A DNA stretch of 64,000 nt from Escherichia phage RB43. Numbering within the stretch: position 1 is the stretch's first letter; each line of letters opens with the position of its first letter. The notes beneath the pieces were generated by a model. That model saw only the letters and a list, made by a program, of their open reading frames with translations, had not been told where the DNA came from and searched no databases. This document shows, piece by piece, positions 16,310 to 52,200 of the stretch. A program made the position numbers and the translations under genes. Location: sequence record NC_007023.1; one strand, given 5' to 3'.

Positions 16310-16574
16310 ATGATCGAACGTGAAAATGTAAATGTTATGGTTGAACTGGGTGATCGTGTTAAAGTTGACAATCCTGTAGATTTGCAACTAAATTAACCAG
16401 TTAGGCCAACGTCTTGTTGATCGGCTTCCTGCTGGTTATAATGTGAAACTTGTCCGTGACGGTCAGTTCTCCTTCCTGTTGGGGATCATTAGTCAACGTG
16501 GTATCGTTGAACAACAGTTCGGAATCCAATGGAATCCGGTATCTAAATTTGTTACTTGGGCTGGTGTCCTATGA
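16310..16574 (+). CDS. hypothetical protein, apparently split by a 1-nt indel at an AAA run (about 87 aa if fused)
   Basis: Strong RBS AAAGGAG before ATG 16310; 28-codon ORF then protein-like reading continues in +1 frame to TGA 16572-16574. Confidence 0.4.
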
Positions 16575-19742: not shown

Positions 19743-20105
19743 ATGAAAGCGTATCAAATTTTAGAAGGTTTACATACTGGTACTATCTATCTGGAAGAAG
19801 GAAACGATGTTCGGATCGTAGTATCAAAAACTCTCGAAGTGGATTCAGTGATCGGAAAATCTCGCGTTGTACCATTCGCAAAACGTGAAGTTGATATTGA
19901 GTTTCAACCGACTGTTAAAGTTGAAGGTGGACAGCACCTAAACGTGAATGTGCTACGTCGCGAAACCCTGGAAGATGCTGTGAAACATCCTGAGAAGTAC
20001 CCACAGTTAACGATCCGCGTTTCAGGTTATGCAGTTCGCTTTAATGCACTGACTCCAGAACAACAGCGCGACGTTATCGCCAGAACCTTTACGGAAAGCA
20101 TGTAA
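19743..20105 (+). CDS. Autonomous glycyl-radical cofactor (GrcA/YfiD-like)
   Basis: C-terminal [58 protein letters not shown] with RVSGY glycyl-radical motif; closely resembles enterobacterial GrcA from memory. Confidence 0.8.
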
Positions 20106-20329
20106 TGTCTATTGAAGATATCAAGGGGTATAAACCCCATACTGATGAAAAAATTACGATCGTGAATCGTATCAAAGCAGCAGAAAATGAACTGGGTGCT
20201 ATCCTGGATGATCTTGATAAACGATATTCAGGTGATTACGCCTGTTCAGATCTGGAATCACACACAGAAAAAGAACTTGATGAAATGCTCGAACGTACAC
20301 ATCAAATTCAATGGCAAAAGACCGACTGA
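20105..20329 (+). CDS. hypothetical acidic protein (74 aa)
   Basis: ORF overlapping GrcA-like stop (ATGTAATG context). Confidence 0.5.
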   Translation: MSIEDIKGYKPHTDEKITIVNRIKAAENELGAILDDLDKRYSGDYACSDLESHTEKELDEMLERTHQIQWQKTD

Positions 20330-20391
20330 AAGAAGCCTCTATGTGGGCGTGTCGTGCGGTGTTCCAGCCAGAAGAAAACTATTAAAATCAA

Positions 20392-20419
20392 GCCGTTGCC
20401 GAAAGGTGACGGCTTTTTT
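20392..20419 (+). terminator. Rho-independent terminator
   Basis: GCCGT...ACGGC hairpin followed by TTTTTT. Confidence 0.6.
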
Positions 20420-20440
20420 CGTTTATATCGAAAATAATGC

Positions 20441-20469
20441 TTGCGTTGAATCCGGCTTTCTTGTATCTT
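20441..20469 (+). promoter_or_regulatory. Conserved promoter cassette (TTGCGT-N17-TATCTT)
   Basis: Same -35/17-nt/-10 architecture as six other copies; spacer contains CCGGCTTT. Confidence 0.5.
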
Positions 20470-20487
20470 TAACCACGTAGGCAAGAC

Positions 20488-20545
20488 AACTTAACTTTGA
20501 GGATGACATTATGAACAACTTAACTTTGAGGATGACATTATGAAA
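20488..20545 (+). repeat. 29-bp tandem duplication spanning RBS and start codon
   Basis: AACTTAACTTTGAGGATGACATTATGAAC (20488-20516) repeated at 20517-20545 with one mismatch; first copy creates a 10-codon mini-ORF whose TGA overlaps the second ATG. Confidence 0.85.
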
Positions 20546-20829
20546 ACTTACAACATGAAAGACCTGGTTGCTTCAAAACTCGTCGTGAAGCCCGTGCGTA
20601 TGTTCTGGCGGCTGGTAAAAATACCTCTGCTGTAATCGACCTGGGTACTGATAAAGAGGTTGGTGCTCGTTGGGCCGCTGTTGTGGTTATCGCTGTCCCT
20701 GTTACCCCTGCTAAAACTCTGGTTCTGGGTGCTCGCAATAGCGAAACTTTGAACACCAGCACTTGCAATAACAGAGGAGTTCATAGTGTCAAAGTGTTCA
20801 AACGTCGCAGCATTGGTGCGAGGGCTTAA
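20540..20829 (+). CDS. hypothetical protein, apparently frameshifted (about 96 aa if one A is added to the AAAA run near 20575)
   Basis: ATG 20540 gives 31 codons; protein-like reading continues in the -1 frame to TAA 20827-20829 with no in-frame start of its own. Confidence 0.4.
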
Positions 20830-21038
20830 TGATGGTAAATTTCAAAGCAGGTGATCTTATTTCACCAAAGAACCGAGAATGCATTAAAGAGTTCCCATAT
20901 TGGGAAAATCTGGAGATTGTATCTTTCTGCTCTGATTTGTGTGAAGCGGTAGTACGTCAAAAGGATGGTTGGATGTGTAATCATTTTAACCTCGACCCAG
21001 AATTTGGTGAAGAGTTCGAAGTTGTTGGGAGTGTATGA
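20829..21038 (+). CDS. hypothetical Cys-containing protein (69 aa)
   Basis: ATG overlapping upstream stop (TAATGATG). Confidence 0.5.
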   Translation: MMVNFKAGDLISPKNRECIKEFPYWENLEIVSFCSDLCEAVVRQKDGWMCNHFNLDPEFGEEFEVVGSV

Positions 21039-21039
21039 A

Positions 21040-21244
21040 ATGAGCAAAACCAAAGAATTAGAACAGAAAGTATTGGGGTTCATGAGTAACAGCGAAGATC
21101 GCTATGCGAAACACCTCATTGTTGAACTGATCACCGAGTACGCCGCCGTGACAAAGAGATAAAGATCTGAAAGATGAAAAGCGTGTGGTTCGCGAGGTTG
21201 TTGTAGAACCAGTTGAATACAACTTTGGCCCTGGTGGTGCATGA
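21040..21244 (+). CDS. hypothetical protein, apparently split at an AAA run near 21155 (about 67 aa if fused)
   Basis: ATG 21040; stop at 21160-21162 but protein-like reading continues in +1 frame to TGA 21242-21244. Confidence 0.4.
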
Positions 21245-21471
21245 TGCGATATGGTAAAAAAGACTATGTTCTTATAGTCGGTCAGCAATACGTAAAGCGT
21301 GATTTCTTCGGCGAACTGTTCCTTTCGAACAATCCTGAATTGATGTACTCATTCGAAACGGAAGAAGACGCGTATATTGCTAAGAACAACAGCAGAAATG
21401 CAGATATTCGTAACTTTGCTCGCGTATACGAGCGCAACACTTTAATAACTTACGAGGCATGTGATCAATGA
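21241..21471 (+). CDS. hypothetical protein (76 aa)
   Basis: ORF with ATGA overlaps on both sides. Confidence 0.5.
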   Translation: MMRYGKKDYVLIVGQQYVKRDFFGELFLSNNPELMYSFETEEDAYIAKNNSRNADIRNFARVYERNTLITYEACDQ

Positions 21472-21698
21472 AATACGTTTTAGAATATTGCGAACATGAG
21501 TTCACCGAAGACATGATGAACAAAATGCGGGTGTATAACCAAAATATTACCAGCATCACCCCTGTTACAGCTTGTCGTGAATTCGTGGGTTATTCGTTTA
21601 CGATTTACACAAATTCAGAAGATGACGCAACCGCATATCTGAAAAGCATTAATGCAATCTTCGACAAATTCGAAAAAGTATGGAAGGTAGGTTACTAA
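21468..21698 (+). CDS. hypothetical protein (76 aa)
   Basis: ORF MKYVLEYCEHEF... Confidence 0.5.
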   Translation: MKYVLEYCEHEFTEDMMNKMRVYNQNITSITPVTACREFVGYSFTIYTNSEDDATAYLKSINAIFDKFEKVWKVGY

Positions 21699-21861
21699 TG
21701 AATTTTATCAACGCAGCATACAAGAAATTTTCGACGCGCTGGAAGCCTGGAAGACACGCACAGACGTTTCTATCACTTCGGCATCCAACGGTACTACATA
21801 CGACCGTTACGACCCTTCTCGTGGCTTACACAAGCCGTATGAGACTAAGGAATCAAAATGA
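21698..21861 (+). CDS. hypothetical protein, apparently frameshifted near AAATTTT at about 21690-21710 (about 54 aa if fused)
   Basis: ATG 21698 (MNFINAAYKK) then protein-like -1 frame EIFDALEAWKTRTDVSITSASNGTTYDRYDPSRGLHKPYETKESK ending TGA 21859-21861. Confidence 0.35.
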
Positions 21862-22010
21862 AGTATTACGGGTTTAAAACGAGTCATTACGGTAAAGCGT
21901 ACCGAACTGATAACATCGATCGCAAACGTCCGTATTATGATTCTCTGGTACGTGCAGGTCGTAAACGTGCTCGCCAGGAAGGGAAGAAGGAAGGAGAAGA
22001 CCGTGGTTGA
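21858..22010 (+). CDS. small basic protein (50 aa)
   Basis: AAGGAA RBS before ATG 21858. Confidence 0.5.
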   Translation: MKYYGFKTSHYGKAYRTDNIDRKRPYYDSLVRAGRKRARQEGKKEGEDRG

Positions 22011-22155
22011 TAATTCAGATCTGAATGAAGCACTTCGTTCTATTACTGCGAATACTAAACCGAAAAAGAGAACAGGAGAAATCATCTTTTTATGTGTATG
22101 GTATTTTGTGTTTAGCTTTGTTGTTGGCGCTGCATTTGCGAAATGGTTCTTATAA
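22003..22155 (+). CDS. small membrane protein (about 50 aa, GTG start)
   Basis: AGGAGA RBS before GTG 22003; hydrophobic C-terminal helix IIFLCVWYFVFSFVVGAAFA. Confidence 0.4.
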   Translation: MVDNSDLNEALRSITANTKPKKRTGEIIFLCVWYFVFSFVVGAAFAKWFL

Positions 22156-22595
22156 TGGATATCGGATCAGGTAGTCAATACCCATCATGCGCATTGAGCA
22201 ACTTTGCACCGCATCCGTTTACATTCGACGGGGTAGAATGTGCATCAATGGAGGGCTTTTTACAAAGTCTGAAATTTAGCAATCCAGATATGCAAGCGCA
22301 TGTGTGTACTCTGGTCGGTAAAGCCGCGAAGTTCAAAGGCAAAAAGAAAAAATGGTGGACAACTCAAACCCTGTATTGGAAGGGTATTCCGATACATCGT
22401 GAATCCGAAGCCTATCAGATCCTTATCGAAAACGCGTACAATGCGTTGTTCCTGAATGAAGGGTTTCGCCGTGCGCTGAAAGCAACCGGAAAAAGTACCT
22501 TGACTCATTCAATGGGAAAGAATAAGATGAATGAAACGGTGCTCACTGAACGTGAGTTTGTGCGAAATTTAACCCGACTAAGGGATCTGTTATGA
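22143..22595 (+). CDS. NADAR-domain (YbiA-like) protein
   Basis: N-terminal NADAR signature LSNFAPHPFTFDGVECASMEGFLQSLKF; about 150 aa typical of the family. Confidence 0.7.
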   Translation: MVLIMDIGSGSQYPSCALSNFAPHPFTFDGVECASMEGFLQSLKFSNPDMQAHVCTLVGKAAKFKGKKKKWWTTQTLYWKGIPIHRESEAYQILIENAYNALFLNEGFRRALKATGKSTLTHSMGKNKMNETVLTEREFVRNLTRLRDLL

Positions 22596-22856
22596 GTGAA
22601 AAAGAAAGAGTAGAATGCGTGTTCCTGTTCAAAGGCGCGATTAATCCATTAGCGTTACTGTATGCACAACATGCATTACGTTCAACGTTGATTCAGAGTG
22701 TTATCTATAAAGGCAGGTGTGTATTATGTTACCATCGGCGCAAATAACATGGTTGTTATTGAATCCTATGTTAAGGAATGCGCATCAAACGGCGTTGTCT
22801 TTGATAAAGTCGATTTTGATGCTGGGGTAGATGCTGTTTATATGTATAAGGGTTGA
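22592..22856 (+). CDS. hypothetical protein, apparently split at an AAA run near 22709 (about 88 aa if fused)
   Basis: ATG 22592 overlapping NADAR stop; reading continues in +1 frame to TGA 22854-22856. Confidence 0.4.
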
Positions 22857-22857
22857 T

Positions 22858-23055
22858 ATGAGTTACGTAGTTTATTTTGATTGTTCGGATCTCGATCCGT
22901 TCGTTCTTCAACAGGCAAAGAAATATCATCAAGATGTCGTTGGCATTGGTGTAACAAATGATGATATGTTGTGCATCGAATTTGAATATTATCGGACATT
23001 TGAGCGTGAACAATTCCTGGGTGAATTGAATGCATTCAAAAGTACCCTTTCTTGA
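22858..23055 (+). CDS. hypothetical protein (65 aa)
   Basis: ATG 22858 (MSYVVYFDCSDLDPF...). Confidence 0.5.
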   Translation: MSYVVYFDCSDLDPFVLQQAKKYHQDVVGIGVTNDDMLCIEFEYYRTFEREQFLGELNAFKSTLS

Positions 23056-28315: not shown

Positions 28316-28891
28316 ATGAAAAGAAAGAACACACTTGATAAATTTATGGTTACTCGTTTAAACATCAAGAACAGCAAGAACAAAACTGTTACCTTGCCTA
28401 CTGGTGAAGAAGTCACGATCCCGCGTCTGGGTTATCGTCATTTCACCCAGATTAAAGCAATGAAAGACCCTATGCAGTTACTTGATTATATCATCAACGA
28501 GATTAAACCACGCGATCTAACAGCAGCAGAAACCGAATTCCTTTTGATTCATTTGCACTATCATAACGATGATAAAGCAATGGAAGCATTGAAAGAGATC
28601 GGCATTAATCTTGATGATATGAAAATCAGTGAGGCTAAGTATGAATACACTTTCGATAACATCAAATTGGTATTCAATAAACCGACCCTGATGCTGGATG
28701 AACTTTCATTACTAATTAAAGAAGCATACGACAACGGGCAACCGATCGAGCTTACGGACGAAAACCGGATTCAATTAATTAACAGCCTGTATCGTTATGA
28801 ATATGACGAGGTAAAACGTGGCGTACTCCAGGAAGTATATATTGTGCATGAGGGGAAAACCATCAAAGGGCTTAACATCATCGGTGAATGA
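28316..28891 (+). CDS. 28: Baseplate hub distal subunit gp28 (putative)
   Basis: 191 aa ORF heading hub operon; called from size and synteny. Confidence 0.5.
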   Translation: MKRKNTLDKFMVTRLNIKNSKNKTVTLPTGEEVTIPRLGYRHFTQIKAMKDPMQLLDYIINEIKPRDLTAAETEFLLIHLHYHNDDKAMEALKEIGINLDDMKISEAKYEYTFDNIKLVFNKPTLMLDELSLLIKEAYDNGQPIELTDENRIQLINSLYRYEYDEVKRGVLQEVYIVHEGKTIKGLNIIGE

Positions 28892-30625
28892 TAATGGCTA
28901 AAAACCCATATTACAGCGACGAACAACGTCGCAGGATGCAAAATCCACAACAGCCACAACCCACCGTTCGTAAGATTAACGCAACGTTGGATAAGGCTTC
29001 AATGAACGAATTGAAGGACATCAACAATAACACTCTTGAAACCGCGCTGAATACGCTGGATATCAAAGAGGGTATGAAGTCCTTTGAAGATAGATTTAAA
29101 GACAAATTTGCAGGGTTTAAAGAGCAATTCGAACAGGATCAGGAACCTCTTGCAGAACAGTTACCTGATTTTGTCGGCCCCGCACGACCTGCATCACTGA
29201 CAGACAACAGCACAACCACTGTTGACAATTCCGTTAGTGTAAGAAACCATCCGTTTAGCAAGCTGGAAGAACATACAGGCACTATTGCAGAAGCGATAAC
29301 ATCGTTTATCGCTCTTGCAAGCAAGAAGCCGGAACCAGCACCTGAACCGGAACCCGTGCCGGAAGAAGAACCAGAAGTTGATAAGACGAAGAAGAAAATT
29401 CGTGATAAAGACAAAGACGAGAAGAAATTCAGTAAACGTGTATTAGCATTGCTTGATTCAATCAAAAACAATACATCAGGGATACTGTCTCGCTTTATTG
29501 GTTATTCACTCGAAGCACTGGCTAAATTCGCTAAGTGGACATTGATTATTGGTAGCATTGTATTCGCGATCGACGTTCTGGCTAAGGTTGTTCAGAAGTG
29601 GTTCCAGGATATTCTAAGCGAGGGTGAAGCCTCGAAAGAATTGTTCGGATCATATTTCAAGAACATCAAAACACTTGCTGAAAAAATCAATGATGGTCTG
29701 GAAAACTTCGATATGAGCAATCTGGGCGACTCACTGAAAAATCTCTTTTTGGAACCGTTCAAAGTTCTGGGTGATACGATTAAAACCGCTATCACTGAGG
29801 GTATCGGTAATCTGATTTACGCACTGGGTGAATATACCGGATCGGAAACCATTACTGATGCAGGGCGCGGAATGAAAGTATCTGCGTTGCGTGATAAACA
29901 GAAATATGGTTTAGAGATTGATCAGGATGACCTGATTATGCTCAAAGAGCAAGAAATTCAGGATCAGAAAGATAAGATTGTTGAAGCCCGTTCTCAACTT
30001 ACGGATCAGGTTAAAGCGACACAGGGCGCGTTCTCCTATAGTTTCGGGAAGCAGACAGACGCACAGAAAGCATTGTCTAAGCAACTCGAAGAAATGCGCG
30101 ATCGTGTTTCTCTGGAAGAACAGATCACGAAGGAGAAAGAAAAGGAACTCCAGATGCTGAAAGACAACCCTACTCTGTTAAAAGAGCAGGTGCAGAAGGA
30201 GAACACCGAGAACCGGAAACGTGTTGATGATTCTAAGCAGATCGAAGCAGCACAGCAGACAAGCTAAACCAAAAGCCGAAAGCGAGTTTGATCGAGGTGA
30301 AGAAATTTTGGGTAAAGACGATATCACCGCGAAAGATAAAGAGTTGATGGATAAGATCATGGAATCTCTTGAAGAGAAAAATGCTACCCAAAAACTCGAC
30401 GAAGACGATCGCGAAAAATATCGTGCGATGCTGGAACAATGGCAGAACAAGATTGCAGTAGTACCGGAAAGCAGCGCACCAATTGACAAGCAACCGGAAC
30501 CTGTGAGAGCACCAGTTGATGCAGTTGCTTCTAACAACGTCCAGGTAAACCAAAAAACAGTTAATAACATGGTACAACATTCAGTACAACGCACTGAACG
30601 TAAGCCATTGATTGCATTAGCATAA
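28888..30625 (+). CDS. 29: Baseplate hub / tail-length determinator gp29, apparently split into two overlapping frames
   Basis: 459-aa ORF (28888-30267) plus 134-aa continuation in +1 frame (30221-30625); sum about 590 aa equals T4 gp29; removing one A near 30258 fuses frames. Confidence 0.6.
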
Positions 30626-40221: not shown

Positions 40222-40361
40222 AGAAAATAAATCGAACGGTAATGGGAGGTGCTGTTCAATCGTTACAGGTTCCCCCAGCTTGTGCGCTTTCAGGGGTTGC
40301 CCCTTTCGCGTATGTCAGTTCTGTTTTCATCAGTGGTGACTCTTTTGATGTATATTCAAGG

Positions 40362-40844
40362 TTACGGAAAGATGTTTCCATGTTCCAGTTGGGTTCCAAT
40401 CGGGCCGCACTCGTCAGAGTACGTAAACTCGTAGATAAACACGCCGTTTTGATTCCCGTACTTCGTGTTGTATTCTTCATACAGCCACATCTTGATCAGA
40501 GCGTCTTTCTCTTCGGTTTCTAAATCGTACCAATCCCGACCATCATATGCAAGCGCAATTTGCGGATTTGAACGATAACGGGTTTCGGCGCTGTCTTCGG
40601 TTTCCCAATCATAACGCTTATCATCATAATACGATTCAAAGCTATTACCCATGTGACCGCCTAAGTCACGGTGAACGTGTTGAACAACTTCTTCGGATGT
40701 CAGCGGAGGATTATAATAACCGCAATTGGGAGAACAATCACCCATCATTTCGCGAAGGTTGTCGATATCAATCGGATCTTTCGGGAACCGGACGATAAAA
40801 CTACTTGATGAACTATTGCTCACAAAACCAGAACGAATTTTCAT
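40362..40844 (-). CDS. Acidic protein, paralog B of MKIRSGFVSNSSSSSF family (160 aa)
   Basis: Identical 16-aa N-terminus to ORF 36445-36912; acidic, Tyr/Cys-rich. Confidence 0.6.
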   Translation of the reverse strand: MKIRSGFVSNSSSSSFIVRFPKDPIDIDNLREMMGDCSPNCGYYNPPLTSEEVVQHVHRDLGGHMGNSFESYYDDKRYDWETEDSAETRYRSNPQIALAYDGRDWYDLETEEKDALIKMWLYEEYNTKYGNQNGVFIYEFTYSDECGPIGTQLEHGNIFP

Positions 40845-46565: not shown

Positions 46566-46716
46566 GTAGCACTGTGGATTCGTTTTCTTTGGCGATTGAC
46601 TGCAAAATGAATTTGGTCTTCTCAGGCGTTCTCGAATGTCCGATTTAAAACACGATCACCGATCGTCAATGTTGTGGTTGAATCGACATCTTCGGTAGTA
46701 CGAATAATTGCTGTTT

Positions 46717-51711: not shown

Positions 51712-52200
51712 GATAAATCTACCGTTTTCATGTTAACGTAGGGATCGAAATGTACCACGATGATTGGATAGTCGCCAGTGGCCTTATCAATGATGTCATA
51801 GATGCGCATCCAATCGCCCCCAGCAAGCCCCGCACCAATAAGAGGGGTAACGATAGGCAATTGAACAGGACACGCCTTAGCGCGTTCTACAGCAGATTTG
51901 AAGCATGATTCAATCGCATCATAATCGACTTGTGGGCCTTCACCCCAAAATTTGTATTGGGTGTACGCGTTAAACAGAAGTTTGTTTCCGTCCTGATAAA
52001 CGGAGTTACGCCCCAACTTAGATTGATTGCCCTTCATCGTCATTGCGTCTTCTTTAAACGCACCAGGGATCTTTTTCTTCACTTCTTTGGCGATACCCGC
52101 GCCCATGTTACCAGAAACCAGTTACCACCCCATGAATTAGGTGTACATCGCGATTAAGGAACAGTTCAACCGCGTTACCTTTGATTTCTTTAATGATCAT
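51708..52200 (-). CDS. TARG1/OARD1-like macrodomain protein, interrupted by a frameshift
   Basis: N-terminal 30-codon ORF (MIIKEIKGNAVELFLNRDVHLIHGVV...) then +1 frame MGAGIAKEVKKKIPGAF... resembling the TARG1 CRMGAGIAVLFKKKFG core; frames join if one T is removed from sense GGTTTC or a 7-nt unit from GTTACCA-GAAACCA-GTTACCA. Confidence 0.6.

Follow-up and report, generated by a model that had tools for sequence, protein, structure and literature searches.

The locus considered here lies in a + strand cluster of small genes of Escherichia phage RB43, and we have analysed it within a 64,000-nucleotide stretch of DNA (record NC_007023.1), called the window, whose numbering is used throughout. 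At its heart is the gene for a 96-aa protein of the early region, which in this record is broken by one missing base and is preceded by an exact tandem duplication of its own start region. The features on which the argument turns are these:

20390..20421, + strand: terminator-like hairpin and T tract, with an 11-pair stem (6 G-C pairs) and the tail TTTTTCGTTT
20441..20469, + strand: candidate sigma-70/T4-early-type promoter (TTGCGT, 17 nt, TATCTT), preceded by the A-rich AAAATAAT
20486..20514, + strand: copy 1 of the duplication, the extra copy relative to all relatives, with SD1 (GAGGA, 20499-20503) and ATG1 (20511)
20515..20543, + strand: copy 2 of the duplication, with SD2 (GAGGA, 20528-20532) and ATG2 (20540), the start codon annotated in relatives
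20511..20543, + strand: mini-ORF of 10 codons, translating to MNNLTLRMTL, whose TGA (20541-20543) overlaps ATG2 as ATGA
20540..20829, + strand: gene for the 96-aa early-region protein (phrog_7596), recognised from its homologues and broken here by one missing base
20566..20571, + strand: frame-break site, GGTTGC here and GGTTTGC elsewhere, the T run at 20568-20569 being one base short

A megablast search with positions 20300-21100 returned 173 phage records, all T4-like, of Pseudotevenvirus type and with enterobacterial hosts. The top matches were two further RB43 records, HE858210.2 and HE981739.1 (99.9% identity; RB43-GVA below), followed by the Citrobacter phages Miller, CfP1 and Xman, so that the window holds a version of RB43 that differs from the RB43-GVA records. 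In RB43-GVA and in Miller the annotated coding sequence of the 96-aa protein starts at the base corresponding to ATG2, and at its other end its stop codon shares the sequence TAATG (20827-20831) with the start of the next gene at 20829.

Two genes upstream of the repeat deserve mention for their own sake. The gene at 19743-20105 resembles that for the glycyl-radical cofactor GrcA (TIGR04365, E = 3.4e-45, a score below the curated cut-off), and is named vs.6 in RB16 and ‘glycyl radical cofactor’ in Miller. Next to it, and immediately upstream of our region, the gene at 20105-20329 encodes a homologue of T4 Vs.4, the anti-CBASS nucleotide sponge Acb2, and matches PF24729; its counterpart in Miller, of 93 aa, matches PDB entry 7UQ2 (‘Vs.4’) with E = 3.5e-22 and covers positions 1-58 of the 58 in the Pfam model. 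The terminator-like hairpin, which in relatives falls just 3' of the vs.4/acb2 stop codon, is kept in the intergenic alignment.

Between the hairpin and the repeat, 8 phages share the blocks GCTTGC and CTTTCTTGTATCTTTAACCACGTAGGCAAG without any change, whereas the spacer that separates them varies. Indeed, CTTTCTTGTATCTTTAACCACGTAGGCAAG and the upstream AAAATAATGCTTGC (together within 20430-20485) stay the same in those 8 phages despite varying flanking genes, and the conservation of this stretch suggests a promoter or a 5'-UTR element. Part of it, 20441-20469, may be read as a weak sigma-70 or T4-early-type promoter; by our reading it matches 7 of 12 consensus positions, which is why a consensus scan, which reported no + strand sigma-70 promoter, left this candidate out. 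When the promoter and terminator tables in the supplement of Nolan et al. 2006 (PMC1524935) were searched for nearby coordinates, the entries found were for other phages only, the published numbering being taken as close to that of RB43-GVA. We also considered whether AATGCTTGC might be a MotA box, and rejected this since its spacing to TATCTT is 19 nt and not about 12. The idea of a repeated terminator-plus-promoter cassette, of the PeSL-like kind, was likewise set aside, since both the intergenic region and the gene occur only once in the window.

The 96-aa protein matches PHROG 7596, which is annotated as of unknown function, from end to end, and weak matches to phrog_8127 and phrog_6265 extend over its N-terminal 40 residues only. 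Searches of Pfam, NCBIfam and PADLOC gave no match, and the best match in a profile search of the PDB had E = 0.32. A HMMER profile search of 1.84 billion cluster representatives found only 11 matches, of which the small ones (85-134 aa, phage-like) share the pattern F-x-T-R-x-x-A-R-x-[FY]-A...N-T-x-A-V-x-D-x-G-T-D-K-x-V-G-x-R-W; the large ones, which are propeller or repeat proteins, we judged to be spurious on their appearance. An AlphaFold2 model built from 18 sequences reached a mean pLDDT of 45. Judged by its sequence relationships, then, the protein is a member of a small, phage-only family. That its gene is real and constrained on the + strand is indicated by the variable alignment columns, which in the + frame fall on codon positions 1, 2 and 3 in the numbers 8, 10 and 23. 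A long antisense ORF (120 aa in RB43-GVA) was rejected as coding, since re-phasing by hand turns these numbers into 23, 10 and 8 and thus puts most of the variation on the first codon position.

The 29-bp duplication

The 29-mer ACAACTTAACTTTGAGGATGACATTATGA is present exactly twice, head-to-tail, at 20486-20514 and 20515-20543. A pattern search allowing up to 3 mismatches finds these two copies, and 100 shuffled controls gave 0 matches, even at 3 mismatches; Tandem Repeats Finder reports the repeat with a period of 29, 2.3 copies and a score of 123. The preliminary description of this locus, which placed the unit from 20488, had recognised the same head-to-tail repeat in another phase, and in this it was exact.

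The question of whether such a repeat is real can be answered from the other RB43 data. The wild type (HE858210) and an rki::gfp derivative (HE981739) have each been sequenced by Illumina (PMC3486835), and both of these records keep both copies; in a three-way alignment RB43-GVA has two copies and Miller one. With the duplication present in three data sets, namely the window and the two Illumina-sequenced stocks, an assembly artefact is very unlikely. Outside RB43 the picture is equally clear. When a 91-nt query across the repeat was used, its full 91 nt were matched by the two RB43-GVA records alone; 29 other records that fully cover the repeat span 62-63 nt of the query, meaning that they have one copy, and in the remaining 28 of the 57 other records the match is limited to the 34 nt that follow the repeat. 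None of the 57 thus shows the junction. An eight-sequence intergenic alignment has a single copy in Miller, Lw1, RB16, Fraggle, IME-CF2 and a Logan metagenome contig, included there with a protein 98% identical to ours. In viral and metagenome contig collections the junction 30-mer gave 0 matches, and the single-copy configuration was matched by 5 viral contigs. The duplication is therefore genuine, young and specific to the RB43 lineage. Its age can be bounded conditionally: the Geneva and Toulouse stocks of RB43 are described as having been kept apart for 20 years (PMC3157838), and if the window record came from a stock other than that of Geneva, the duplication would be older than the separation.

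As a mutation, the duplication is ordinary, a new instance of a type that is already known. Spontaneous short tandem duplications and slipped-strand indels, that is, events of the Streisinger type, are familiar in T4-type phages, and the RB43 repeat resembles them in being an exact head-to-tail copy that is found in one lineage only, has been sequenced independently and is single in sister genomes. It differs from textbook slippage in its junction, which has only 1 nt of microhomology. The nearby AACTTA repeats lie 28 nt apart, not 29, and slippage between them was rejected as the origin because it would yield a 28-bp unit and cannot give the observed junction.

One further RB43-specific change lies close by. 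A single T is lost at 20312 (CAATTGG to CAATGG) in all three RB43 data sets, the window and both RB43-GVA records, which cuts the vs.4/acb2 ORF from 93 to 74 aa and leaves its most conserved C-terminal helix to a 24-codon ORF of its own (20311-20385), the ATG of which arose with the deletion. In all the other relatives that were checked the ORF is intact, at 92-93 aa. Since this deletion is common to the window and both re-sequenced records it is genuine, unlike the loss of T at 20568 that is discussed below. Across 21.4 kb that align at about 99% identity or better, RB43-GVA and Miller differ by 124 substitutions and only two indel events, and these two, separated by 181 bp, are the 29-bp duplication and the deletion at 20312. 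Two indels would fall so close together by chance in roughly 2% of cases, and their proximity may reflect one complex event, selection in laboratory passage or coincidence.

Possible translation from two identical start sites

What might the duplication do? The unit that was copied consists of the final 25 nt of the 5' leader, with its GAGGA Shine-Dalgarno sequence, plus the start ATGA, and in each copy 7 nt separate GAGGA from the ATG (8 nt if the GAGG core alone is counted). The claim that a mini-ORF encoding MNNLTLRMTL runs from the first ATG to a TGA overlapping the second is borne out by translation of 20511-20543. Its existence, though, follows from arithmetic: as the unit ends in ATGA, as 29 + 1 = 30 is a multiple of 3 and as there is no earlier stop in frame, a 10-codon ORF from the upstream ATG is inevitable. 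The overlap thus arises from the length of the duplication, and the coupling layout is a by-product and not a design.

Given this arrangement, we would expect ribosomes to load at either of two identical initiation sites, which, being 29 nt apart, are too close for joint occupancy and would compete for ribosomes. Those starting upstream would synthesise the decapeptide and stop on the real start codon, from which they might re-initiate, and in this way the 96-aa gene would still be expressed. The downstream start retains an identical, full Shine-Dalgarno sequence, so that coupling is not required, and this argues against any dependence on upstream translation. On balance, the duplication is probably near-neutral, with a small net effect on the gene.

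An alternative is that selection has acted on the duplicated module as a regulatory device, with a leader peptide or upstream ORF that tunes or couples translation and was fixed because it changed expression. This is unlikely, although there is something to be said for it. The layout is that of a coupled pair, with the mini-ORF having its own Shine-Dalgarno sequence at 8-nt spacing, an AUG and an ATGA stop/start overlap; the duplication persists in stocks said to have been separated for those 20 years (PMC3157838); and in the 21.4 kb of RB43 and Miller DNA that are at least 99% identical the single other indel is 181 bp away from it. Against these points stand the absence of the duplication from all 57 other records with the locus and the lack of any divergence between the copies, which leaves no record of selection. 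Indeed, with the copies identical and the mini-ORF confined to RB43 and found in none of the relatives compared, there is no evolutionary signal of function, and the overlap, as we have seen, is an arithmetic consequence of the duplication length.

Nor is there RNA structure or a terminator for such a device to modulate. The predicted fold of 20470-20600 (-20.8 kcal/mol) has z = 0.07 against shuffles, and that of the 75-nt repeat region, 20486-20560, has z = -1.62, with 13 of 200 shuffles as good; neither in the duplicated nor in the single-copy leader did any fold beat its shuffles. No terminator lies between the mini-ORF and the gene, and the sole terminator-like hairpin (20390-20415) is upstream of the leader. 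The absence of the mini-ORF from relatives, a fold no better than shuffles and the arithmetic of the overlap together leave the leader-peptide, or regulatory, reading offered in the preliminary description unsupported.

Comparison with known systems leads the same way. Regulatory leader peptides and upstream ORF attenuators of the trpL and ermCL type are also short ORFs immediately 5' of a gene, and to that extent they resemble the RB43 arrangement; unlike them, the RB43 mini-ORF is unconserved, has no alternative hairpins or terminator before the gene and contains no regulatory codon run. In the decapeptide MNNLTLRMTL, moreover, we know of no arrest or regulatory motif. Coupled overlapping genes, joined by ATGA or TAATG and common in T4-like clusters, also offer a likeness: the mini-ORF has a Shine-Dalgarno sequence, an AUG and a stop overlapping the downstream AUG, and the 96-aa gene itself is joined to the next gene by an overlap of the TAATG kind. 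The difference is that the upstream ORF in RB43 is a 10-codon by-product of duplication and not a conserved gene.

A stronger version of the same thought is that the duplication is adaptive, a translated upstream ORF born de novo by copying of the initiation region, which would retune an early accessory gene and was possibly fixed together with the frameshift in vs.4/acb2. This we consider distinctly improbable, and we continue to prefer a near-neutral duplication.

The missing T and the accuracy of the record

Turning to the gene itself, the two open frames that had been reported are both there. The stretch 20540-20635 translates to 31 codons and a stop, and the -1 frame is open over 20536-20829, where it reads ...CFKTRREARAYVLAAGKNTS... 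and ends in GARA and a stop codon. What finds no confirmation is that the frame break is a property of the phage; the frame is broken by a single T that is missing relative to every other sequence of the locus. GGTTTGC is found in RB43-GVA (two records), Miller, Lw1, RB16, Fraggle, IME-CF2 and the Logan contig, and TT in the window only. Restoring the T gives a continuous ORF of 291 nt and 96 codons, and a continuous coding sequence is annotated in RB43-GVA (CCK73932.1/CCL97549.1), Miller (AIK68020.1), Lw1, Fraggle, leB, RB16 and IME-CF2. In a search of 5.8 billion proteins, all 29 homologous protein clusters were continuous, with lengths of 93-102 aa, and the residues that flank the break (L9, V10 and F12) were invariant across the protein clusters, the break itself falling between V10 and F12. 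The preliminary description was to be refuted if re-sequencing gave a single copy and a continuous ORF, and the outcome is split: RB43-GVA has the continuous 96-aa ORF, and it keeps the second copy.

To place this one base in context, the whole 64-kb window was aligned to RB43-GVA, which gave 42 differences between 16393 and 62998. Of these, 37 are single-base indels, mostly in short homopolymer runs, and 5 are substitutions. The indels are clustered, with seven in 20568-23052 and three in 75 nt near 40300; there are also four extra Cs within 17 nt (52112-52128) and a compensating +G/-T pair 34 nt apart (47940 and 47974). When gaps were counted against Miller as an outgroup, the window had the odd state at nearly every decidable site, 20568 included, and the RB43-GVA version needed fewer gaps, nine of the differences having no Miller match and a few aligning without a decisive gap difference. 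Many ORFs of the window are shortened or split by these indels. For example, the gp29-like baseplate hub/tail-length gene (28888-30267) has an extra C at 30260, so that its product is 459 aa as against 576 aa in RB43-GVA and matches positions 1-459 of the 579 in phrog_7361, compared with 1-579 of 579 for the RB43-GVA version. A phage is unlikely to tolerate a shortened version of a structural gene of this kind, and the truncation is thus a sign that the record is in error. Further apparent frameshift or split-gene sites lie near 16393, 21139/21160, 21719, 22712, 23051, 35776 and 40293-40368, and at 46569/46644, 49728, 50516, 52112-52128, 57085 and 60880.

As many as 37 frameshifts to 5 substitutions are implausible in a viable phage and are the signature of base-calling error. 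The pattern is that of the indel errors of first-generation phage records, with which it shares the 37:5 excess, the short homopolymers, the clustering, the broken conserved ORFs and the correction by Illumina sequencing. In keeping with this, re-sequenced RB43 differs from the published genome at no fewer than 107 nucleotides, i.e. at least 107, with 106 of the differences common to both stocks (PMC3486835). The missing T is most likely a base-calling or assembly error in the older RB43 record and not a piece of phage biology. Taking the two halves of the locus together, we put the probability at roughly 0.88 that a genuine, near-neutral 29-bp duplication stands beside an unrelated frameshift that is an error of the record.

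Could the T instead have been lost in the RB43 stock that was sequenced, leaving the 96-aa gene as a recently inactivated pseudogene? The family is small and accessory, with no known function, and for a gene that looks non-essential a genuine pseudogene would be viable; moreover, the adjoining vs.4/acb2 carries a genuine 1-nt deletion in all RB43 records, so that real indels do occur here. Yet the T in question is 1 of 37 single-base indels specific to the window, set against 5 substitutions, and if all of these were real then the indel ratio and the truncated baseplate hub gene would be incompatible with a viable phage. The T run is also intact in two independently sequenced RB43 stocks. A true pseudogene is for these reasons a quite unlikely account of the break.

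Programmed or tolerated -1 frameshifting is extremely improbable. Its appeal is that the -1 frame is open from 20536 and that, 5 nt past the deletion, there is an A AAA context at which a slip, for instance on TCA AAA C (20572-20578), would by our reading restore all but two residues and give MKTYNMKDLVASK-TRREARAY..., a near-normal protein. However, reading the 0 frame of 20540-20635 turned up no X XXY YYZ heptamer and only this one A AAA C context, the z of 0.07 over 20470-20600 indicates no stimulatory RNA structure, no homologue needs a shift and re-sequenced RB43 does without one. Programmed frameshifting is rejected in view of the continuous homologues and the lack of a slippery heptamer and of a stimulatory fold. 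The likeness to dnaX and to the G/GT tail chaperones of phages, in which two overlapping frames jointly encode one protein, is confined to the two frames, for the window locus lacks the slippery heptamer and stimulatory structure of those systems, and the shift is missing from its homologues and from re-sequenced RB43.

Two lessons from one locus

Our preferred reading, a real duplication beside an error of the record, carries two different messages. The first concerns quality control. With about one single-base indel per 1.7 kb, many similar false frameshifts are to be expected in the window, and an apparently frameshifted gene in it should not be taken as a case of recoding or as a pseudogene. 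The second concerns the phage itself. The 29-bp duplication is a clean natural example of how a copied start region instantly yields an upstream ORF whose stop overlaps the start codon of the gene, an arrangement that looks like translational coupling and that in RB43 bears no sign of function.
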